Source: Candidatus Methylomirabilota bacterium (GTDB lineage: Bacteria > Methylomirabilota > Methylomirabilia > Methylomirabilales > 2-02-FULL-66-22). Taken from it: 55,345 nt of DNA. The notes beneath the pieces were generated by a model that had not been told where the DNA came from, did not search any database, and saw nothing but the letters and a program-made list of their open reading frames with translations. Below, one piece after another: positions 4,031 to 54,855 of the stretch. The first letter of the stretch is position 1. Every line of letters starts with the position of its first letter. The position numbers were made by a program, and so were the translations under genes. The stretch spans positions 1 to 55,345 of the forward strand of contig JACPAT010000030.1 of assembly GCA_016180655.1 (NCBI GenBank), given 5' to 3'.

Positions 4031-4061
4031 CAATGACCAATGACCAATGACCAATGACCAA
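4031..4061. repeat. Perfect heptamer array (CAATGAC)x4 plus CAA in the pilS-pilR spacer
   Basis: The sequence caatgac caatgac caatgac caatgac caa was read directly. It lies about 20 nt upstream of the proposed pilR start. Confidence 0.95.
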
Positions 4062-4066
4062 CTCCT

Positions 4067-4158: not shown

Positions 4159-6087
4159 CTACTTCCTGCTCTCCGCGCCGACCGTCACCGGCGCGCGGTG
4201 CAGCCAGATGCGGAAGGTGGTCCCGGTCCCCGGGCGGCTCTCCACCCCGATGCGGCCGTCCATGCTCTCGAGGAGCTTGCGCGCAATGGAGAGCCCCAGG
4301 CCGGTTCCCGAGGGTCGGGTCGTGTAGAACGGGTCGAAGATCCGTTCCAGCTCCTGCGGCGGGATTCCGCGACCCGTGTCGTGGAACACGATCTCCACCC
4401 ACTCACCGCCTGTCGGCGGTGTCGAGTAGTCAAGTGGTCGAGTAGTCAAATGGTCTTCTCGGCTCGAATCACCAGCTCTTCCGAATTGACCAATTGACGA
4501 ATTGACCAATTGGCCATCCCCCTCGGACGGCGATGTCAATTGGTCCATTGGTCGAGTAGTCAACTGGTCACTCTGCTTCGGAGCCTCGCCTTTCCCGAAT
4601 TGACCAATTGACGAGCTGACCGATTGACTCCCGTGCGGCGCAGGCCGCAGGGCAATGGTGAGGGTTCCCCCTTCGGACATGGCCTGCATCGCGTTGAGGC
4701 AGAGGTTCCACACGACCTGCCGGAGCTGATCCAGGTCGGCCAGGACATGCAGGTCCGGCTCCTCTTCCGTCAGGACCCAGGTCATCTCCGGATGGCGCTC
4801 ACTGCTCTTGGCGAGGAGGTGCAGCGTCTCGTCCAGCAGCGGGCGAAGCGGGCACGGGCGGAACAGCAGCGGTTGGGGCTTGGCAAAATCCAGGAACTGG
4901 CCGGTGATCAGCTTCAGGCGACTCGCCTCGCGCAGGATGATGTCCAGGAGCTGCCGCTGCGGTCCCGCGGGGGCAAGATCCTCGCGCAGGACCTCCACCG
5001 ATCCGCTGATCGCCGCCAGGGGATTGCGCACCTCGTGGGCGATGTTGGCCGCAAGCTGTCCCAGGGCGGCCAGGCGGTCTGCGCGGCGGAGGTGCTCTTC
5101 CACCCGCTTGCGCTCCGTGAGGTCCTGGAAGATGGCCACCAGGCCCACCGGCTCTCCCTCGGCCGCCCGCAGGGGAGAGCAGGCGATCCCGAGGGGGATC
5201 GGCCGGCCATCCCGTCGCTGGAGATACAGTTCCGTTGCCGGGGTCGCCAGGGGCGCCTCGGGCTGGGCGAAGAACTCGGCCAGGGCGGGGCAGGCCCCGA
5301 AGGGCGTCTCTTGCCAGGGTCGGTCCCGCAGGGCCTCGAAGTCGTAGCCGGTGATCTGTTCTGCGGCCGCATTGAAGGAGATGACCCGCCCTGCCAGGTC
5401 CAGGGTCAGGATCCCGCTGGGGATGTTGGCGACGATGGCCCAGTGCAGCGTCTGGAGGTTCCGGAGATCCAGTCCCCGCCGCTCCAGCTCCTGCCCGGCC
5501 TGCCTGAGGCGCTCCACCAGGTGGCTGCTGAGGATGGCCACGGCCAGGAAGGCGACCGCGTGGATCAGCACCTGGTAGACCGCGTATCCCGCGGGGCGGA
5601 GGGGGGCGAGGCCGCCCGCGAACTCCGCGGGGGGGAGGAGCCGCGTCCATTCCGCCGCCACCAGGATGCCGTACAGCCCGCCGCTGAGGATCGCCACCAG
5701 GAGGCTCCCCCGGCGCTCCAGCACGTTGGCGGCCCCGAAGATGACGAAGATGTACATGAAGGGGAAGGCAGAATCCAGGCCGCCGGTGAAGTGGACCAGC
5801 AGGCTCACCAGCCCCAGGTCCAAGCCCAATTGCACCAGCCCCTGGAACAGGAGATGCCGCTGGCTGCGGAGGGCCAGGGCGTAGACTAGGGAGAGGCCGA
5901 AGGTCAGGCCCAGCAGACCGTACAGCGGGGGGGTGGGAAAGGGCAGGCGCTCGTGCAGGTCCAGGGCGAAGGCCGAGCCCAGGAGGGCCGAGGCCAGGAG
6001 CAGCCGGATGCCCGTGAGCCACTTCAGCTTCTGGAGCATCCCGGGCGTCGCCCCGGCCGGGCGACGCGGCGCTTTCTCCCCGGGCAC
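4159..6087 (-). CDS. pilS: Sensor histidine kinase PilS, carrying a repeat-encoded insert in the ATPase domain
   Basis: It has an N-terminal multi-TM domain, a PAS region and an H-box (IAHEVRNPL). HATPase_c motifs are N box NLCLNAMQAM, G1 DTGRGI, F FDPFYTT and G2 GTGLGLS. The start is set at GTG 6087 with GGAGG 5 nt upstream. A ~75-aa insert lies between the N box and G1 (nt 4421-4628). Confidence 0.9.
   Translation of the reverse strand: MPGEKAPRRPAGATPGMLQKLKWLTGIRLLLASALLGSAFALDLHERLPFPTPPLYGLLGLTFGLSLVYALALRSQRHLLFQGLVQLGLDLGLVSLLVHFTGGLDSAFPFMYIFVIFGAANVLERRGSLLVAILSGGLYGILVAAEWTRLLPPAEFAGGLAPLRPAGYAVYQVLIHAVAFLAVAILSSHLVERLRQAGQELERRGLDLRNLQTLHWAIVANIPSGILTLDLAGRVISFNAAAEQITGYDFEALRDRPWQETPFGACPALAEFFAQPEAPLATPATELYLQRRDGRPIPLGIACSPLRAAEGEPVGLVAIFQDLTERKRVEEHLRRADRLAALGQLAANIAHEVRNPLAAISGSVEVLREDLAPAGPQRQLLDIILREASRLKLITGQFLDFAKPQPLLFRPCPLRPLLDETLHLLAKSSERHPEMTWVLTEEEPDLHVLADLDQLRQVVWNLCLNAMQAMSEGGTLTIALRPAPHGSQSVSSSIGQFGKGEAPKQSDQLTTRPMDQLTSPSEGDGQLVNSSIGQFGRAGDSSREDHLTTRPLDYSTPPTGGEWVEIVFHDTGRGIPPQELERIFDPFYTTRPSGTGLGLSIARKLLESMDGRIGVESRPGTGTTFRIWLHRAPVTVGAESRK
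4421..4513. repeat. Periodic-arm palindrome, GTCnnnnn family, copy 1 inside pilS
   Basis: The left arm is gtcgagta gtcaagtg gtcgagta gtcaaatg gtc. A 27-nt centre follows. The right arm is gaattgac caattgac gaattgac caattgg. Confidence 0.9.
4536..4628. repeat. Periodic-arm palindrome, GTCnnnnn family, copy 2 inside pilS
   Basis: The left arm is tcaattg gtccattg gtcgagta gtcaactg gtcac. A 25-nt centre follows. The right arm is gaattgac caattgac gagctgac cgattgac. Confidence 0.9.
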
Positions 6088-10728: not shown

Positions 10729-13545
10729 TCAGGCGATCCCCTCGGCGATGGCGTGCACCAGCGCCTGCCGGATGGCCTCCATGCGGTCCCCCTCCGCCAC
10801 CTTGCTCCCGTCCTTCTCGGTCACATAGAAGACATCCACGGCCTGGTCCACCTCCGTGGCGATTTTCGCCAGGGCCACATCCAGATCCATGTCCGAGAGC
10901 GTGCTGCTGATCACGTAGAGCAGCCCCAGACGGTCCGGCGCCCGGACGTCGATCACCGTGTACCGGTCCGACACCAGGCTGTCGAACTCCACCCGGGTCT
11001 GCATCTCCCTCGCCCCGGGGCTGGGCTTGGCGAGCAGATCTCGCCGGCGCGCCTTGATCAGGTCGCGCACCGCGACCTGGTCCAGGATGACTCCCTTCAG
11101 GTCGCGGGCGAAGCGATGCCAGACGGTCTCATCCTCGAGGGCGGCGCCGCGGCCGTCGCTCACCTGGAAGGTGCGGATCATGACCCCGTCCGCCCGGCTG
11201 AAGAGCTGGGCCGTCAGGATATTGATCCCGTTCGCCGTCAGGGTCCCGACCACCTTGGCGAAGCGGCCCGGCGCGCCCGGCGCGCACACCGAGACCTCCG
11301 AGTAGCCCGCCATGGGGTAAGCGTCCCAGCGGATCGCCACCGGCTCGCCGCGACGCACCTGCTCGATGAGCTGGAGGTGCTGCGCCACCTTGGTGCTGGA
11401 GGTGGTGAGGACGTATCGGCTGGGCATGAGGGTGAGGTGCTGCCGCACCACCTCGGCCCCGAACTCTCCTCCCAGCTCCGCCACCAGGGCTGCCCGCTGG
11501 GTGGCCGCCTTGCGGTGCTCCTCCTCGCCCTCGGGGACGCCGCGCGTGAGGATGGTGTGGGTCTTGATGAACAGCTCCCACAGGAGGGTCCCCTTCCAGT
11601 CGGTCCAGACCTGGGGGCCCACGGCGTTGATGTCCAGGTAGGTGAGGAGGTAGAGCATCTTCAGGAGGTCCTCGTCGCCCACCAGACGCGCGAAGTCGAT
11701 GATGAGGCGCTCGTCGTCCAGGTCCCGCCGTTCGGCGATGTGGGCCATGCTGAGGTGCTGGGCCACCAGGAACGTCACGCCCGCGATGTCGCTCTGCGCC
11801 AGGCCCATGCGGGTCAAGGCCGCCTCGGCGATGGCCACGCCGCGCTCCACGTGGCCGTGCCCCTCCCCCTTGCCGATGTCGTGGAAGAGGATCGCCTGTT
11901 TCAGCACCTCCGGCTTCTTCAGCTCGCCGGCGATCCGCCGGAACTCCTGGAGGCGGGGGTCGGTCGCCTCGGCGAGCGCTTCCAGGTAATCCAGCAGGAC
12001 GAAGGTGTGCTCGTCCACCGTGTACCGGTGGTAGTAATCGAACTGGACCAGGCAGGCCACCCGGGCGAACTCCGGGAGGTAGGCGGACAGCACCCCCAGC
12101 TGGTGCATCTGGCGCAGGGTGTCCGCCACGCCGCGCGGAGCCTTGAGGATGGCCAGGAAGAATCCCAGGGCCCGGTTCGAGCGCCGGAAGTCGTCGTCGA
12201 TCAACTCCAGGTTGCTCCGGACGGCCCCCTTGGCCTCGGGGCTCAGGTCGTAGCCCATCTCCTGGCAGTACCAGAAGATCTTGAGGAGCCGGATGGGGTC
12301 CTCCCGGAAGCAGTGGCGCTTCCCGGGCAGGATGTGGATCTGGCGGTTGAGCTCGGTGAACTCATCGCCGATGTCCCGGGCCCTCAACTTCTTCATCACG
12401 GCCTCCACATGGGAGCCGGGTCGGGCGACACAGCGCTCGATGAGGTGCCCCGAGAACTGGTGCAGCGCCCCGGCCCGGGTATAGTACTGTTGCATGAATC
12501 GCTCGACCCCGTAGGTCGCCTCGTCCCGGAATCCCAGGTTGGCCGCCACCGGGACCTGCAGGGAGAGGCTGAGCACGTCGCTCTTCCCCCCGTGCAGATA
12601 GTGCAGCTCGCTGCGCACGCGGAGGAGGAAATCCAGCGCCTGGAGGCACTGCGCCAGCTCCACGGGGGTGAGCAGGCCCAGCGCCGGCAGCGCCTTGAGG
12701 TTCTCCAGGCGATGCCGGGCGCGCGCCACCCAGAGCGCCGTGTGGAAATCCCGCAGCCCTCCCGGTCCCTCCTTGACGTTGGGCTCCTGCAGGTAGACGG
12801 AGCCCCCGTACTTGGTGTGCCGCTGGAGCTGTTCCCGCAGCTTGAGCTGGATGTACTGCTGGGCCCGCCGCCCCTGGAGGCTCCGCCACATCCGGTCCTG
12901 AAAACCGGTGAAGACGTCGGGGCGCCCGGCCAGGAAGCGCGCCTCCAGCATGGAGGTGCGGGCCGTGAGGTCGGCGTCCATCATCCGCATGGCGTCGTTC
13001 AGGGAGCGGCAGCTGTGGCCCACGCTGAAGCCCAGGTCCCACAGGAAGTACAGGACGTGATTCAGGGTCGCGGCCACGTACTCGTCCACGCGCCGGGGGT
13101 ACAGGAACATCACGTCCACGTCGGAGCCTGGGTTCAGCTCCCGCCGCCCGTAGCCGCCCAGCGCCACCAGGGCGCAGCCTTCGCTCGGCTCCCGGAGTGC
13201 CGGCGGCACGACCCCGTCGGCCAGCCGGAAGAGCTGGCACACCACGGCGTCAACCAGGTCCGCGTGGCGGGCCACGACCTCGAGTCCGCTCGCCCCGCCT
13301 CGGTGCGCCGCCTCGATGCCTACCCGTTCCTCGGCGATGAACCGCTTCACCGCGGGCAGCAGTGCCGCGCGCAGCGCCTCCCCGTCCCCCGCCGGGGCCG
13401 CCGGGGCCAGCCCCTCCAGGAGTGCCTGGAAGCGAAGTGCCACCTCCGTCTCGGGCCCGTAGGAAATGGTCCTGGCCGGGCCCCGGGCCGGGGCGGGCAC
13501 GCCCCAGCGGAAGAGACGGGACAGGGCACGGACGGGATCAGCCAT
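10729..13545 (-). CDS. glnD: Bifunctional [protein-PII] uridylyltransferase / uridylyl-removing enzyme GlnD
   Basis: The start is ATG 13545 (MADPVRALS). It has a nucleotidyltransferase motif (GGYGRRELNPGSDVDVMFLY) and an HD domain (FHDIGKGEGHGH). Two C-terminal ACT-like domains follow. The 1482-aa ORF in the track is an upstream in-frame extension. Confidence 0.92.
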   Translation of the reverse strand: MADPVRALSRLFRWGVPAPARGPARTISYGPETEVALRFQALLEGLAPAAPAGDGEALRAALLPAVKRFIAEERVGIEAAHRGGASGLEVVARHADLVDAVVCQLFRLADGVVPPALREPSEGCALVALGGYGRRELNPGSDVDVMFLYPRRVDEYVAATLNHVLYFLWDLGFSVGHSCRSLNDAMRMMDADLTARTSMLEARFLAGRPDVFTGFQDRMWRSLQGRRAQQYIQLKLREQLQRHTKYGGSVYLQEPNVKEGPGGLRDFHTALWVARARHRLENLKALPALGLLTPVELAQCLQALDFLLRVRSELHYLHGGKSDVLSLSLQVPVAANLGFRDEATYGVERFMQQYYTRAGALHQFSGHLIERCVARPGSHVEAVMKKLRARDIGDEFTELNRQIHILPGKRHCFREDPIRLLKIFWYCQEMGYDLSPEAKGAVRSNLELIDDDFRRSNRALGFFLAILKAPRGVADTLRQMHQLGVLSAYLPEFARVACLVQFDYYHRYTVDEHTFVLLDYLEALAEATDPRLQEFRRIAGELKKPEVLKQAILFHDIGKGEGHGHVERGVAIAEAALTRMGLAQSDIAGVTFLVAQHLSMAHIAERRDLDDERLIIDFARLVGDEDLLKMLYLLTYLDINAVGPQVWTDWKGTLLWELFIKTHTILTRGVPEGEEEHRKAATQRAALVAELGGEFGAEVVRQHLTLMPSRYVLTTSSTKVAQHLQLIEQVRRGEPVAIRWDAYPMAGYSEVSVCAPGAPGRFAKVVGTLTANGINILTAQLFSRADGVMIRTFQVSDGRGAALEDETVWHRFARDLKGVILDQVAVRDLIKARRRDLLAKPSPGAREMQTRVEFDSLVSDRYTVIDVRAPDRLGLLYVISSTLSDMDLDVALAKIATEVDQAVDVFYVTEKDGSKVAEGDRMEAIRQALVHAIAEGIA

Positions 13546-21257: not shown

Positions 21258-21344
21258 TGATTGTCGATTTGCGATTGTCGATTGACGATTGGCCGGAACC
21301 CCGGCAAGAATCGGAAATCGTAAATCGGCAATCGTCAATTCAAG
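21258..21344. repeat. Periodic-arm palindrome, CGATTnn / nnAATCG family
   Basis: The left arm is tgattg tcgattt gcgattg tcgattg acgattgg. The centre is CCGGaaccCCGG. The right arm is caagaatcg gaaatcg taaatcg gcaatcg tcaattc. The right arm contains the stop codon of the upstream permease. Confidence 0.9.
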
Positions 21345-23768: not shown

Positions 23769-23854
23769 CATTTTCGATTGACGATTGTCGATTGACGATT
23801 GGGCAGGACGTTCCGAGACAATCGGCAATCGCAAATCGAAAATCGCCAATCAGG
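23769..23854. repeat. Periodic-arm palindrome, CGATTnn / nnAATCG family
   Basis: The left arm is cattttcgattgacgattgtcgattgacgattggg and the right arm is caatcggcaatcgcaaatcgaaaatcgccaatcagg. It fills the whole ATPase-SBP spacer. Confidence 0.9.
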
Positions 23855-25589: not shown

Positions 25590-25829
25590 ATGGAGGTCCT
25601 GAAAGCAGATCTGGTTCTCGACTGCAAGGGCGTGCTGTGCCCGATGCCTGTCATTCGAGTCTCGCAGGCGATCAAAACGATCGGCGTGGGCCAGATCCTG
25701 GAAGTGCAGACGACCGATCCGGGATCCCGCCCGGACATGGAGGCCTGGAGCAAGCAGACGGGCCACGAACTGCTGGCCAGCCAGGAAGGAAACCGTGTTT
25801 TCACCTTCTACGTGCGCCGAACCAAATGA
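25590..25829 (+). CDS. tusA: TusA/SirA-family sulfurtransferase
   Basis: This 79-aa protein carries the LDCKGVLCPMPV CPxP active-site motif. GGAGGGAGG lies upstream. Confidence 0.9.
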   Translation: MEVLKADLVLDCKGVLCPMPVIRVSQAIKTIGVGQILEVQTTDPGSRPDMEAWSKQTGHELLASQEGNRVFTFYVRRTK

Positions 25830-25876
25830 CCAATGCCAATGAACCAATTGGTCATTGAGAATGGTCATTGGTCATT
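25824..25876. repeat. Periodic-arm palindrome, CAATGAC / GTCATTG family
   Basis: aaatgac caatgcc aatgaac caatt|aattg gtcattg agaatg gtcattg gtcatt is centred on ccaattgg. The tusA TGA stop lies inside the left arm. Confidence 0.9.
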
Positions 25877-25890
25877 CTGAGGAGGCAGTG

Positions 25891-26466
25891 ATGGACCCGC
25901 AACTCAAGGCGTACATCGACCGCAAAGTGGATGAGGAGGTGGCGCGCCGGTTCAGGGAGCTGGGGCAGGAGGCTGTGAAACCCAACCGGATGGCCCTGGT
26001 CGCCTCCAAGGGGACCCTGGACATGGCCTACCCGCCCCTGATCCTGGCGACGACGGCCGCCAGCCTGGGATGGGAGGTGGGGATCTTCTTCACGTTTTAC
26101 GGGCTGGACATCCTCCACAAGGACCGGATGGACAGTCTGAAGGTCGGTCCGGTGGGAAATCCGGCCATGCCGCCACCCATCCAGAGCCTCCCGTTCCTGA
26201 AGGTGCCAAACATTGTGGGGGCGCTGCCCGGCATGACCGCCATGGCCACGGCGATGATGAAGAGCTGGATCGCCCGCGCAAAGCTGCCCACGATCCCCGA
26301 GCTGATGGACATCGCCAGGGAATGTGACGTCTCGCTCTTCGCCTGAGCGACGACCATGGGGCTGATGGGCATCAGCCAGGCCGAATTGATTGACGGGGCG
26401 AAGTGCGCGGGCGCCGCGACCTTCCTGGACTACGCGGTGGGGGCCAAGGTCTCTTTGTTCATCTAG
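25891..26466 (+). CDS. DsrE/DsrF/DrsH-like family protein with in-frame TGA (probable selenocysteine) at 26344-26346
   Basis: The start is ATG 25891 (GAGGAGG 5 nt upstream). The ORF-track protein stops at TGA 26344, but the same frame continues as ATTMGLMGISQAELIDG..GAATFLDYA..VSLFI to TAG 26464-26466. The TGA occupies the position of the conserved Cys in the family motif xAC(Q)M(S/T)MDxxGI. Confidence 0.7.
26360..26377 (+). promoter_or_regulatory. Bacterial SECIS-like hairpin
   Basis: GGCUGAU-GGGC-AUCAGCC forms a 7-bp stem with a G-rich tetraloop. It starts 13 nt after the UGA. The geometry resembles the E. coli fdhF SECIS apical stem with its GGUC loop. Confidence 0.5.
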
Positions 26467-26856
26467 CGGCTGTCGCGGCGCTCGTTCTTTGCGCGCTTCG
26501 ATCCGCATCCCGTGCGGGGGTCCGTGTTTCGCCGTTGCCCTCCCTGGGATCGACCTCAACGGTCCTCACCCCTGCAGCCGCCTCCCCGAGCGCATTGCCG
26601 TCCGAACCGCGCCTGACTCCCAGCGAGCCGGGCCTCCTCTCGCGCGCCAAGCTGCCCAGAGCGGCCTGGACGCTCTCCCCCGCGCCGGAGATGTGCCTCG
26701 GCTGGATCATGCTTCCCTCCCAGCAAACCAAGATTAAAATGGTAGGCTTTCAGCACATCCTGTATTATACGGGCGCTTCATGGTCGCCGACAGGGAGAGC
26801 GGCGCGCGTGCTGGCCTGGGCCGCCCGGGTGCGGCCCCTCAGGGGGAGGGAGGATC

Positions 26857-27984
26857 ATGAAACGCGTCATCTGGATCCCGGGGCTGGCGGTGGTGGTGGC
26901 AGCAATGGCGGCGGCATGTGCCGGCATGAGCGGATTCGGCGATGTGCCGACCACCTATGAGGTCTGGATCCCCGAACAGGGATACGACAAAATCATCATT
27001 TACACCGCCACGGAGGGAGACGGTGAGGTGACGATCGCCAAGTCGGGCGAGATCGCCCTGGCGCCGCCCGGACCGCAGCCCACGGTGGCCCCCCACATCC
27101 TGCTGTTCGGCCCGGGCTATAAGCGGGCCTACGTGGCGGGGGTGCGGGCCGGCGGCATGTTCGTGGTGGACGCAGAGCGGCGATCGGTGATCACCCGGAT
27201 CCCCACTGGCCGCACGGCCCACGCCGCCACCCCCTCGTGGGATGGCTCCCGCGTCTGGGTGGCCAACGTGGGGGACAACAACATCGTCGAGGTCCTGGCG
27301 CAGGGGGACACCTATACCAAGGGCCGGACCATCTCCACGGACCCGCGCCCCTCGTGCGCCTTCTGGTCCCGGGACGACAGCGCCTTCTGGGTGGTCACCG
27401 GCGGCCCCGGGAACGCGCCCCCGGACCAGGCCGGCACCATCACCGTGGTGGACGCCAAGGCGGGCCGGGTGAGCAAGGTCATCCAGCCCATCGGTCGGGA
27501 CGGGTGCGCGGTGGTGCCCAGCCACGACGAGAGGTGGCTCTACGGCAGCTCGCCCTCGCAGTTCACGGTGGCCGACGCGAAGACGGGCGAGATCGTCAAG
27601 CGGATCCGGCCCAGCGGTAAGGACGCTCACGGCTTCATGCCGACGCCCGACGGGAAGCACATCCTCCTCGCCGTGCGGCAGGCGGACGCGGTGGACGTGC
27701 TGGATGCCCGGACGCTCGAGCGGCTGAGCACGATCCCGGTGGGGAGCCGGCCGGATCTCTTCGACTTCAGCCCCAGCGGGCGCTATGCGTTCATCAGCCT
27801 GCGGGGCAAGGCGATCACCGGCGATCCGCACGCCCTGACGGGGCAAGAGAGTGGATTCGCCGTGCTGGACACGCGGACCTGGCGGGTGGTGGCCAAGGTG
27901 CGCGCCGAGGGCGAGAACTCGGACATTCACGGCATCGCGACCCGGCCCAGCGGCTTCTGGGACTGGTATCGGGCACGCCGCTAG
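26857..27984 (+). CDS. Secreted lipoprotein, beta-propeller (YVTN/YncE-like repeat) fold
   Basis: It has a signal peptide with a lipobox-like AAACAG. Repeated ~40-aa blades are visible (..AHAATPSWDGSRVWVANVGDNNIVEV.., ..GFMPTPDGKHILLAVRQADAVDVLD..). GGGAGGGAGG lies upstream. Confidence 0.75.
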   Translation: MKRVIWIPGLAVVVAAMAAACAGMSGFGDVPTTYEVWIPEQGYDKIIIYTATEGDGEVTIAKSGEIALAPPGPQPTVAPHILLFGPGYKRAYVAGVRAGGMFVVDAERRSVITRIPTGRTAHAATPSWDGSRVWVANVGDNNIVEVLAQGDTYTKGRTISTDPRPSCAFWSRDDSAFWVVTGGPGNAPPDQAGTITVVDAKAGRVSKVIQPIGRDGCAVVPSHDERWLYGSSPSQFTVADAKTGEIVKRIRPSGKDAHGFMPTPDGKHILLAVRQADAVDVLDARTLERLSTIPVGSRPDLFDFSPSGRYAFISLRGKAITGDPHALTGQESGFAVLDTRTWRVVAKVRAEGENSDIHGIATRPSGFWDWYRARR

Positions 27985-28212
27985 GAGACCGGGGGGACCC
28001 AAGGCCCCTCAGGGGCGCCCCCGGATTCCCCTCGGGGCAGAAGCAAGAGAGCCGACCGCCTCCCCGTTCCGATTCCGTGGTTCTCGCGAACCCGCACTTG
28101 ACCTGATCTCGCGTTCCGAGATATGAGTGGCAGGGCCTCGCCTGCACGCGGGGCACCTGCCTGTGCCATCTGACGGGATAGGCTGGCTCGGGAGACGGTC
28201 GGGGGACGCGGG

Positions 28213-28998
28213 ATGCTGATCACGGTCATCCTCTTCGCCTCGGGGGTGGGCATCGGCCTGCTGGGAACCCTCATCGGCGCCGGCGGGGGATGGATGGTCG
28301 TCCCCCTCCTCCTCCTCGGATTCCACTTCACGCCGCAGCAGGCCGTCGGCACGTCCCTGGCGGTCGTCTTCCTGAATGCCCTCTCGGGCAGCCTGGCGTA
28401 CATGCTGCAGGGCCGCGTGCTCTACACCATGGGCTTGGCCTTCGCCGCCGCCACCATTCCCGGGGCATTGCTCGGGGCGGGGCTGGTCCAGTTTCTCAGC
28501 TCGAAGTGGTTTTCCGTGTTGTTCGGTGGGTTCCTGCTGTGCGTGGCATTCTTCCTCCACCGCGGGCAACAGCTCCTGTTCGCGCAGGGCAGGAGAAGGG
28601 AGGTGACGAGGGCGGAGCTTCAATCCTTGCGAACCCCTGTGATGCGTCTGGGAATCCTCATCAGCTTCCTGGTGGGTATCCTCTCCAGCCTCTTCGGCGT
28701 CGGGGGCGGGATCATCCATGTGCCGTTCCTGATCGTGATGCTGGGGATCCCGGTCCACACCGCCACCGCCACCTCCCACTTCATCCTGGCCATCACGAGC
28801 CTCACCGGAAGCCTCATGTTTCTCCGCCAGGGCCAGATCCACCTGACCGCAGCGGCGAGCATGGGTCTGGGTGTCCTGATCGGGGCACAGGGGGGCGCAT
28901 CCCTCTCCACCCGCATGCGGGGGGAGCCCATTCGCCGCCTTCTGGCGGCGGCCCTGGCCATCTTCGCCCTCCGACTGATTCTCCGGTTCGTGTGGTGA
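28213..28998 (+). CDS. TauE/SafE (TSUP, DUF81) family anion exporter
   Basis: It has 8 predicted TM helices with the duplicated motif GxGGG (LIGAGGGWMVVPLL and LFGVGGGIIHVPFL). Confidence 0.88.
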   Translation: MLITVILFASGVGIGLLGTLIGAGGGWMVVPLLLLGFHFTPQQAVGTSLAVVFLNALSGSLAYMLQGRVLYTMGLAFAAATIPGALLGAGLVQFLSSKWFSVLFGGFLLCVAFFLHRGQQLLFAQGRRREVTRAELQSLRTPVMRLGILISFLVGILSSLFGVGGGIIHVPFLIVMLGIPVHTATATSHFILAITSLTGSLMFLRQGQIHLTAAASMGLGVLIGAQGGASLSTRMRGEPIRRLLAAALAIFALRLILRFVW

Positions 28999-35495: not shown

Positions 35496-37732
<2,237 letters not shown>

Positions 37733-52254: not shown

Positions 52255-52361
52255 TTGTCCGATTTGCGATTTGGGATTGTGGATTTTCGATTTCCGGACG
52301 GGACCCCGCGGTTTCCACGGGCAGTCGGCAATCGGCGATCGTCAATCGAAAATCGACAATC
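52255..52361. repeat. Periodic-arm palindrome, CGATTnn / nnAATCG family, between convergent genes
   Basis: The left arm is ttgtccgatttgcgatttgggattgtggattttcgatttccgg and a GC-rich centre follows. The right arm is agtcggcaatcggcgatcgtcaatcgaaaatcgacaatc. Confidence 0.9.
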
Positions 52362-53530: not shown

Positions 53531-53755
53531 GTGAGACCTCCTTCCCGGTTGTCCCGTCAGGTCCAGGGCCAGGCCACGCGGCGTGGAAGCCTAGGGGGAT
53601 CGCCAACGGCGCGTCAAGGGGTTTTTCCGGGGGCTTCGGAATGGTCGAAAGGCGGGGCGTGGGGGCTTTCCCCGGCCGCGATGCCTGAGGGCAGGAGGTT
53701 CATCCATGTGCTTTCGTGTTGACTTCTGTTTGAATCTGTGAGCGAATGGCACCGC

Positions 53756-53783
53756 GCACATCGCCCCGGCCGGGGCGATGTGC
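53756..53783. other. Perfect 28-nt palindrome in the leader of the mutarotase-like gene
   Basis: gcacatcgccccgg|ccggggcgatgtgc is a 14+14 perfect inverted repeat. It lies between a TTGACT box (53719-53724) and the RBS at 53803. Confidence 0.7.
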
Positions 53784-53811
53784 AGGGGGACGCGGATGCC
53801 TGGAGGAGCGG

Positions 53812-54855
53812 ATGGCGGCCGCCCGGATTGACCCACACTGGCGCTACCACGACCTGCGGGCCATCCTGCTGGAGAATGCCCGCCTGCGCCTCACCATCCT
53901 GCCCGAGGTCGGGGCGAAGATCTCCGATTTCATCTGCAAGCGCTCCGACCGGAACCTGCTGTGGCAGAACCCCCGGCTGGCGCCTCGCCTGCCCGCCTTC
54001 GGCGGCAATTTCGACGACTGGTGGAGCGGGGGCTGGGACGAGGTCTTCCCCACCTGCGACATCAGCACCTACCAGGGTGAAACCTACCCCTACCTGGGGG
54101 AACTCTGGTCGCTTCCCTGGGCCTGGGAGGTCGAGGAGGCCGGCCCGTCCGCCGTCAGGCTGTATCTCACGCGGACGACGATTATCGCAACGGCACGGAT
54201 GGAGAAGTGGATTCGCCTGGAAGCGGACGAACCGGTCGTCCGCTTCCGGCACCGGCTGACCAACCTCGGGACCCGGCCCATGGATTTCGTGTGGGGGATC
54301 CACCCCTGCTTTCGCATCGAGGCGGGCTACCGGATTGACGCTCCGGCCCGGGTCGGGGTCATCGGCCACACGGCGACAGCCCCCTTCGGACCGGTGGGGA
54401 CGACGTACCCGTGGCCGAACCCCGACATCTGCACCGTTCCGCGGACGACCCAGGGCTGGTGCGAGGGGCACTACGCGACCGAAATGACCGACGGGTGGGT
54501 CGCCCTGACGGACCCGAAGGCCGAGGTGGGGATCGGCCTCGTCTTTCCGCGTGACGTGTTCCCGGTCCTGTGGTGCTGGATGGTCTATGGCGGGTGGCGC
54601 GGCCACTACCATGCGGCGCTGGAGCCCTGGACGGGCTGGCCGCACCAACTGGACAAGGCGGTAGCGGCGGGACGACACCGGACCCTGGCGCCGGGTGAAT
54701 CGCTCGAGTGCGAGACCATGGCGGTTGTTTATAGCGGGGTGCATGCGAGACCATGGCGGTTGTTTATAGCGGGGTGCAATCTGTCACCTCGATCGGGTGG
54801 GACGGCCATGTTCGTGGGTGACGGTGAAACCGCAAATGCACGCAATGTACCTTGA
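53812..54855 (+). CDS. Aldose-1-epimerase (galactose mutarotase)-like fold protein, with the 3' end frameshifted by a 35-bp tandem duplication
   Basis: The start is ATG 53812 (GGAGGAG upstream). The function is a low-confidence guess from overall beta-rich sequence character and the adjacent sugar-type ABC ATPase. Without the duplicated copy the frame ends ..MAVVYSGVQSVTSIGWDGHVRG* at 54819-54821. Confidence 0.6.
   Translation: MAAARIDPHWRYHDLRAILLENARLRLTILPEVGAKISDFICKRSDRNLLWQNPRLAPRLPAFGGNFDDWWSGGWDEVFPTCDISTYQGETYPYLGELWSLPWAWEVEEAGPSAVRLYLTRTTIIATARMEKWIRLEADEPVVRFRHRLTNLGTRPMDFVWGIHPCFRIEAGYRIDAPARVGVIGHTATAPFGPVGTTYPWPNPDICTVPRTTQGWCEGHYATEMTDGWVALTDPKAEVGIGLVFPRDVFPVLWCWMVYGGWRGHYHAALEPWTGWPHQLDKAVAAGRHRTLAPGESLECETMAVVYSGVHARPWRLFIAGCNLSPRSGGTAMFVGDGETANARNVP
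54709..54778 (+). repeat. Perfect 35-bp direct tandem duplication
   Basis: tgcgagaccatggcggttgtttatagcggggtgca occurs at 54709-54743 and again at 54744-54778. The two copies are identical. Confidence 0.97.

Follow-up and report, generated by a model that had tools for sequence, protein, structure and literature searches.

A probable selenocysteine codon at the catalytic position of a DsrE2-type sulfur carrier gene from an NC10-type bacterium

Directly behind a tusA gene, an in-frame TGA interrupts the coding sequence of a DsrE2-type sulfur carrier at the position of the active-site cysteine. Does this TGA end the gene, or is it read as selenocysteine (Sec)? The locus lies in the window, by which we mean the whole stretch of DNA that was analyzed. 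It is a complete 55,345-bp contig, and the single contig covered, of an NCBI metagenome-assembled genome (MAG) labelled candidate division NC10. On the forward strand, the dsrE2 open reading frame (ORF) starts at ATG 25891, behind a Shine-Dalgarno sequence AGGAGG that is seen directly at positions 25880 to 25885. It encodes residues 1 to 151, ending ECDVSLFA, and reaches the TGA at 26344 to 26346. The same frame then continues for 39 codons (ATTMGLMGISQAELIDGAKCAGAATFLDYAVGAKVSLFI) and is closed by the TAG at 26464 to 26466, with a read-through product of 191 aa. A preliminary description had taken the locus for a probable selenoprotein gene split by the ORF caller. We found the end of the ORF, the same-frame tail, and the TAG exactly where it had placed them, and the split itself recurs as 151-aa and 36-aa calls at every locus that has the TGA. 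As judged from sequence comparison, positions 25891 to 26466 are very probably one gene of 191 codons (151 plus Sec plus 39) and a TAG stop, encoding a DsrE2-type sulfur carrier in which codon 152, UGA, is read as Sec.

We searched 5.8 billion proteins for homologues. They fell into two lengths, 191 to 198 aa (100% query cover) and 151 to 155 aa (exactly 79%). All full-length homologues carried the motif (F/Y)A-C-(A/G/S/T)-TTMG, and the short forms all ended at (F/Y)A, one residue earlier. Cys152 was invariant in 30 of 30 full-length homologues. Among the top 120 homologue clusters, 20 motif-matched sequences ended one residue before it. The relatives of known structure from the Protein Data Bank (PDB), 2QS7 (SSO1126), 3PNX, and 3MC3 (SSO1125), aligned their conserved cysteine to the TGA column. 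The alignment column, the Pfam profile, and the PDB relatives thus agree that the TGA stands in for the conserved active-site cysteine, as had been proposed. In the literature, this cysteine is identified as the sulfur-binding residue of the active site that all DsrE-type proteins conserve, and in DsrE3A and DsrE3C this function has been proven (Liu et al. 2014; Tanabe et al. 2024). In the window protein, the first cysteine beyond residue 152 comes 20 residues later, and distant homologues do not conserve it.

The TGA occupied the same codon in nine distinct DNAs, namely the window and the related loci L004, L006, L089, L091, L167, L168, L169, and L172. All nine had the conserved 39-codon tail and the same stop position, and their proteins were 77 to 89% identical to that of the window. 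The final stop in the relatives was TAG, TAA, or TGA, always at the codon position of the window's TAG, and sequence similarity vanished directly beyond it. The window's own TGA allele recurred in at least eight independent sequencing runs or assemblies, against the possibility that resequencing would show TGC or TGT here.

Closely related forms with a cysteine codon, which the preliminary description had asked for, also exist. Orthologues of the same clade that are more than 80% identical had TGT or TGC at this column (L087/L088, L090, and L179 to L184), and some of them are syntenic. As far as their contigs reach, L087, L088, and L090 are arranged like the TGA-form locus L004, with an opposite-strand racemase gene followed by dsrE2, yncE, tusA, and tauE. 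Because this gene order is shared, these Cys forms and the TGA form are orthologues and not paralogues. Among 63 motif-matched metagenome loci, the codon was TGC in 47, TGT in 14, and TGA in 2, and the distant motif-matched loci all had TGC or TGT. In a neighbor-joining tree, the outgroups, all with cysteine, fell outside a clade made up mostly of TGA forms with Cys forms interspersed. In a scan of a collection of genome contigs that does not include the window's species, all matches were distant Cys forms with no more than 70% identity.

The 39 codons behind the TGA have evolved as translated protein. The pairwise ratio of nonsynonymous to synonymous substitution rates (dN/dS) was 0.114 in the tail, against 0.108 in the domain upstream. 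When the codons of the hairpin described below were left out, the tail had a dS of 1.17 and a dN/dS of 0.094. The reading frame of the tail was free of stops, while every copy had stops in the +1 frame and some copies had them in the +2 frame, and no TGA-form copy contained a frameshift or an extra stop. The concern that orthologues might stop at this TGA and be followed by unrelated sequence is answered by this purifying selection. We also called the 40 window genes by the GC content of third codon positions (GC3). The TGA of dsrE2 was the only one to precede a coding-like extension (GC3 of 0.92) other than the next gene.

The read-through protein is a complete member of its family. It matched Pfam PF13686 (DrsE_2) over profile positions 3 to 156 of 156, with an E value of 7.6e-44 and a score of 149.8 bits (cut-off, 25). 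With the truncated ORF, the match broke off at profile position 117, and the tail supplied positions 117 to 156. The 39-residue continuation is therefore the normal C terminus of PF13686-type proteins, as first suggested, with a profile match that runs unbroken across the TGA. The NCBIfam DsrE2 model, NF047629, was matched over positions 4 to 159 of 159 with 170.2 bits, below its 210-bit equivalog cut-off. Because the PF13686 cut-off was passed and that of NF047629 was missed, we call the protein a DrsE_2 member and DsrE2-like rather than a certified DsrE2 equivalog. PF02635 scored 23.9 bits (cut-off, 22.7), over residues 131 to 181 only.

For structural comparison, we used an AlphaFold2 model of a Cys orthologue, P0001, that is 89% identical to the window protein. 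The model had a predicted local distance difference test score of 80.7, and its core exceeded 90. The best Foldseek match was 2QS7, with a template modeling (TM) score of 0.84, followed by 3PNX and 3MC3 (DsrE3A) with a TM score of 0.82. YchN, DsrEFH, and TusBCD were further structural matches. C152 closes the strand 148 to 152 and opens the helix 153 to 159, at the strand/helix junction of the DsrE alpha/beta fold. The tail contributes helices 153 to 159 and 175 to 183 and strands 171 to 173 and 187 to 190 to the modeled fold. The match to 2QS7 (E = 1e-14) had no counterpart for the N-terminal helix (residues 3 to 29) or for the loop 88 to 114. Residues 1 to 31 (25891 to 25983) form an amphipathic N-terminal helix that lies outside the Pfam model and is missing from 165-aa Rokubacteria homologues. 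The loop 88 to 114 (26152 to 26232) is proline-rich and hydrophobic, has low model confidence, and is absent from 2QS7. Both the helix and the loop may be contact sites for a membrane or a partner protein.

If the UGA is recoded, a bacterial Sec insertion sequence (SECIS; bSECIS for the bacterial type) would be expected close behind it. A candidate hairpin, GGCUGAU-GGGC-AUCAGCC, lies at 26360 to 26377, with arms at 26360 to 26366 and 26371 to 26377 and the apical loop GGGC at 26367 to 26370. It starts 13 nt after the UGA, as the preliminary description had it, and its loop starts 20 nt after. The 7-bp stem, the 4-nt loop starting with GG, the 20-nt spacing, and a predicted ΔG of −9.1 kcal/mol agree with all four published bSECIS criteria in our simple implementation of them.

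The significance of the hairpin comes from its conservation across genomes. The 26-nt block that contains it (ACCATGGGGCTGATGGGCATCAGCCA, 26353 to 26378) was nucleotide-invariant in all TGA-form relatives. Codons +3 to +10, encoding T-M-G-L-M-G-I-S, had no synonymous differences in 36 pairs of TGA forms; the values elsewhere were typically 0.4 to 0.6. Likewise, 5 of 5 degenerate codons in the hairpin were nucleotide-invariant, versus 4 of 65 elsewhere in the gene (Fisher P = 1e-5, with shared ancestry ignored). The hairpin was identical in 9 of 9 TGA forms and altered in 4 of 6 distinct Cys forms that encode the same peptide, TTMGLMGI (P = 0.011, with shared ancestry ignored). Two of these four alterations were loop changes (GGC to GGG). 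In the Cys forms L183 and L184, synonymous Gly and Leu changes and a Ser-to-Gln replacement destroyed the stem. In more distant Cys forms, with Leu replaced by Val and Ser by Lys or Arg, the hairpin cannot form. The nucleotide constraint therefore tracks the TGA, being kept in TGA forms and drifting in Cys forms, as a SECIS would predict.

Several observations count against Sec at this codon or qualify the case from the hairpin. The bSECIS criteria are permissive in a genome with 68% GC, with 14% of the 1283 TGA trinucleotides in the window and 2 of the 21 genuine TGA stops passing them, and the hairpin structure alone is therefore weak evidence. The hairpin is also intact in two Cys forms, L087 and L179, which may be recent Sec-to-Cys reversions or may retain a preadapted ancestral state. 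The L-M-G-I-S context, with GC-rich codons, partly favors a palindrome. No covariation was seen in the hairpin across the TGA forms, where the analysis is impossible because all of them are identical in this element. The window had no match in Rfam at gathering thresholds, a null result that is uninformative because Rfam has no general bacterial SECIS model. A shuffle test gave the 71-nt fold no significant z-score (z = 0.48), but such a short hairpin in such a GC-rich sequence is beyond the reach of this test. The lower-stem pairing of the window was not kept in the relatives, and there is no conserved bulged U or extended lower helix. As for the decoding machinery, Pfam scans of the window ORFs (30 further ones) found no SelA, SelB, or SelD on the contig, and ARAGORN found no tRNA, hence no tRNA(Sec), either in the window or in any of 11 related loci. 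We also scanned about 150 kb of the window and its relatives for TGA read-through and found no second selenoprotein gene. The scan recovered the same dsrE2 site in the relatives, and its other matches were rejected as an adjacent same-frame gene and an antisense artifact.

In support of Sec decoding, use of Sec has been reported for the phylum. A 2026 review lists one MAG from Methylomirabilota that is predicted to have 63 selenoprotein genes, and a 2026 study found Sec-type group 4 hydrogenases in Methylomirabilota. A literature search that combined Methylomirabilis or Rokubacteria with selenocysteine found nothing specific.

Could the ribosome pass the UGA and yet insert an ordinary amino acid? 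A reassigned TGA codon is rejected, because 22 of the 40 window genes, tusA included, stop at TGA. In a second version of this explanation, a near-cognate or suppressor tRNA would insert Cys, Trp, or Gly, perhaps with stimulation from the hairpin. Selection on the tail and the conserved hairpin require continued translation only and are silent on the inserted residue, and the missing Sec machinery on this contig would suit such a tRNA. However, the classic mark of a selenoprotein is a TGA that alternates specifically with codons for a catalytic Cys (PMC12013277). The hairpin fits the geometry of a SelB-type SECIS, with a loop that starts with GG. In addition, the TGA stops of the window genes are not followed by conserved extensions, and extensive Sec use has been reported for the phylum. 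We therefore consider read-through without Sec to be highly improbable.

A further explanation takes the TGA as a true stop in a split gene, whose 151-aa fragment would reassemble with a possible separate 36-aa peptide started at ATG 26356. The callers' two ORFs suit such a split, the 36-aa piece matches DrsE_2 weakly at most of the TGA loci, and a protein made of two pieces also predicts selection on the tail. However, the split would remove exactly the single invariant catalytic residue, and the break would fall at a strand/helix junction within the core fold. ATG 26356 has no Shine-Dalgarno sequence, while the three neighboring genes tusA, dsrE2, and yncE all have GGAGG, and the hairpin would occlude the putative start region. 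Moreover, the A-T-T codons between the TGA and this ATG are conserved in frame. These points make a split gene a very remote prospect. Finally, TGA as a degraded Cys codon, in a pseudogene or through an assembly or sequencing error, would take only a single-base change from TGT or TGC, and the missing NCBI protein between MBI2113916.1 and MBI2113917.1 is consistent with a pseudogene flag, but the chance of it is negligible, since the same TGA occurs in nine diverged sequences and at least eight independent runs or assemblies, and since tail selection equal to that of the rest of the gene, an open frame with no frameshifts or additional stops, and similarity ending at the terminal stop exclude a pseudogene.

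We return to UGA read as Sec. In the proposed sequence of events, the hairpin 13 to 31 nt past the UGA would act as a bacterial SECIS while the ribosome reaches the UGA. It would recruit SelB-GTP-Sec-tRNA(Sec), and Sec would be inserted in place of termination. Translation would then go on through the last two helices and two strands to the TAG at 26464. The family, the structure matches, and the gene neighborhood indicate cytoplasmic sulfur trafficking. In such a role, the selenolate of Sec152 may attack a sulfane sulfur to give a selenosulfide (Se-S), which may be exchanged with Cys17 in the CPMP motif of the co-encoded TusA. Compared with Cys, Sec has a lower pKa and is a stronger nucleophile and a better leaving group, which would speed both loading and unloading.

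It is also conceivable, though unlikely, that tusA-dsrE2(Sec) is a two-gene counterpart of YedF, a fusion of TusA-like and DsrE-like parts that is statistically linked to SelD, and that the pair, instead of being a sulfur relay, traffics selenium as a Se-Se or Se-S adduct on its Sec residue. If so, selenium delivery in bacterial cells would become directly testable, in a phylum with an exceptionally large selenoproteome.

The partner gene tusA lies at 25590 to 25829 on the forward strand, 61 nt before dsrE2, in agreement with the earlier statement that the two are directly adjacent. Its product matched PF01206 with an E value of 1.7e-20, carries the CPMP motif, and ends at an ordinary TGA stop. 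Its best NCBIfam match was TusA, below the cut-off, and NCBI names it "sulfurtransferase TusA family protein" (MBI2113916.1). In relatives with flanking sequence, tusA was adjacent to dsrE2 or within two genes of it. The next gene on the same strand, at 26857 to 27984, encodes a YncE-like beta-propeller with weak Pfam matches to Cytochrom_D1 and YNCE; this yncE-like gene adjoined dsrE2, with 80 to 90% identity, in L004, L006, L087 to L091, and L167 to L169. It is followed on the same strand, at 28213 to 28998, by a gene for a TauE/SafE-family membrane protein of the sulfite-exporter family (PF01925; E = 3.1e-49), which was syntenic in L004 and L006. The NCBI records for TusA (MBI2113916.1) and YncE (MBI2113917.1) have consecutive accessions, and dsrE2, which lies between them, has no protein record, presumably because of an internal-stop flag. 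A sister NCBI assembly had no gene call upstream of yncE.

Together, tusA, dsrE2 (Sec or Cys), the yncE-like gene, and the TauE/SafE gene form a four-gene module, at 25590 to 28998 in the window and also in the loci L004, L006, L087 to L091, and L167 to L169. The position of tusA varies within the module, either before dsrE2 or after yncE, and the propeller gene is the one most tightly linked to dsrE2. The YncE-like protein is a 7-bladed beta-propeller with a lipoprotein-like signal peptide. In L004 (13656 to 18158) and L006 (14383 to 18913), the next genes after the module encode a 518-aa 4Fe-4S/NrfD fusion and a 945- to 956-aa molybdopterin oxidoreductase that resembles polysulfide, thiosulfate, or tetrathionate reductase. 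The window has neither the 4Fe-4S/NrfD nor the molybdopterin gene; an Rrf2 gene and a radical-SAM gene stand directly behind TauE. In L172 (86 to 6541), the genes behind the TGA-form dsrE2 encode a second DsrE (133 aa, PF02635), two CCG-domain/4Fe-4S proteins, a Pyr_redox_2 flavoprotein, and ETF. They make up an sHdr-like sulfur-oxidation cluster, which connects the Sec form with this pathway in one lineage at least. At 11029 to 12198 in L006 (GCA_040961535.1), a DDE transposase (DUF4372 plus DDE_Tnp_1) lies between dsrE2 and the yncE-like gene, and the yncE call there is only 318 aa.

The contig as a whole carries pilus/type II secretion genes, GlnD, Amt, ABC transporters, a racemase, the tusA-dsrE2-yncE-tauE module, Rrf2, and a radical-SAM protein. 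It also carries RNase G, L21, Obg, ProB/ProA, RsfS, DksA, a Ser/Thr kinase, GAPDH/PGK/TIM, and an Opp system.

Several repeats occur in the window and its relatives. A heptamer-based motif, ATTGGTC/ATTGGTCATT, occurs 11 times with at most one mismatch, versus 0.94 expected in the window. The spacer between tusA and dsrE2 (25825 to 25876) contains the inverted repeats AATGACCAAT/ATTGGTCATT. A perfect 4.4-copy tandem of the ATTGGTC-type motif stands at the 5' end of a sigma-54 activator ORF, with motif sites at 4031 to 4062 and 4484 to 4608. In relatives, the motif was found just upstream of the dsrE2 ribosome-binding site (L006, L089, and L091) and just past the dsrE2 stop (L091 and L167). The motif may serve as an operator, or it may be an intergenic repeat specific to the lineage. 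AT-richer tandems with a 7-nt period lie at 21259 to 21291, 23770 to 23801, 35542 to 35573, and 52320 to 52361 (and also at 4031 to 4061). Their units, GATTGTC, CGATTGA, AAATCCC, GGCAATC, and CAATGAC, are each present in about 4 to 6 copies. These tandems lie in or near intergenic regions, often near gene starts, and resemble the heptamer repeat families of other phyla. The 3' end of the DUF4432 gene at 53746 to 54855 contains, at 54709 to 54778, a direct duplication of 35 nt that is perfect (2.0 copies, 100% match); it may be a recent event or an assembly artifact.

What would a Sec-containing DsrE2-type protein mean? For annotation, dsrE2 has been split into 151-aa and 36-aa pieces, or dropped by NCBI, in many NC10-type and "Deltaproteobacteria"-labelled MAGs. 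A dedicated gene model would repair at least 20 truncated protein clusters among the top 120 homologues. A Sec-containing entry of this type also fits the reported selenoprotein richness of Methylomirabilota. DsrE2 proteins are widespread TusA partners, and a natural Sec variant argues that the conserved cysteine is a working nucleophile. The Sec/Cys orthologue pairs, with more than 80% identity and the same synteny, are ready material for a comparison of reactivity. With TGA and Cys forms interleaved in a shallow clade, and with hairpin decay in some Cys forms, the locus offers a clean small example of Sec/Cys switching.

How does the window protein compare with known systems? The preliminary description had referred to reports of Cys-to-Sec replacement in DsrE-like families. 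This holds for the PF02635 UxxC family of Desulfovibrio vulgaris and does not extend to the PF13686/DsrE2 type. That known family, listed as "DsrE-like protein," belongs to PF02635, has the motif UxxC, and was found in D. vulgaris and Sargasso Sea sequences (Kryukov & Gladyshev 2004; Zhang et al. 2005). It shares with the window protein the DsrE superfamily fold and the basis of the Sec prediction, which is a TGA/Cys pair and a downstream bSECIS-like hairpin. However, the window protein matches PF13686 far better than PF02635 (149.8 versus 23.9 bits), and its motif is FA-U-ATTMG. Because there is no Cys at +3, it has no UxxC redox pair. It differs also in being tusA-linked, DsrE2-like by NCBIfam, and present in NC10-type bacteria.

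The best match in sequence and structure is to the DsrE2/DsrE2B carriers (NF047629; Mcup_0682; SSO1126, 2QS7; Alvin_2601). The window protein has the conserved Cys column and the motif ACxTTM in common with them, as well as the place next to tusA. However, the described members have Cys where the window has UGA/Sec, and the 31-residue N-terminal helix and an insertion of about 25 residues (88 to 114) of the window protein are missing in 2QS7. The archaeal DsrE2B, to which 2QS7 is assigned in the literature, was unreactive with every sulfur compound tried in vitro.

The relay of TusA with DsrE3A, DsrE3B, or DsrE3C that feeds sHdr has the same fold (Liu et al. 2014; Tanabe et al. 2024), and its single conserved cysteine has been proven to bind a persulfide or thiosulfonate, which it hands on to TusA. 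In contrast, the window has no sHdr genes and has the YncE-like gene and TauE as neighbors instead, and these two papers describe no DsrE3 with Sec. The rhodanese-like selenoproteins (forms 1 to 5) of the prokaryotic catalogue are also sulfurtransferases in which Sec replaces a persulfide-carrying Cys, and they were predicted by the same Cys/TGA logic. Their rhodanese fold, however, is unrelated to DsrE.

In geometry, the candidate hairpin is reasonably compared, as in the preliminary description, with the E. coli fdhF-type SECIS, and also with the consensus bSECIS (Zhang & Gladyshev 2005): it lies in the coding region just past the UGA and has a small GG loop, and its spacing and ΔG fall inside the published ranges. 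It differs in having neither a bulged U nor an extended lower helix that is conserved. Because this recoding mechanism is textbook, the locus does not represent a new kind of system. At the level of families, we found no PF13686, DsrE2, or TusA-linked entry in the 2026 inventory of 119 families and subfamilies or in the deep-Sep and BSepDB papers; the groundwater survey of Deng et al. was not covered. That inventory counts a different motif or domain as a different subfamily, and because the catalogue separates entries by domain or Sec motif, a DsrE2/DrsE_2-type protein would be an addition to the list of prokaryotic selenoproteins. Set beside these systems, the window gene appears rather likely to represent a selenoprotein subfamily missing from the catalogue, in which a DsrE2-type carrier that contains Sec has TusA as its partner.

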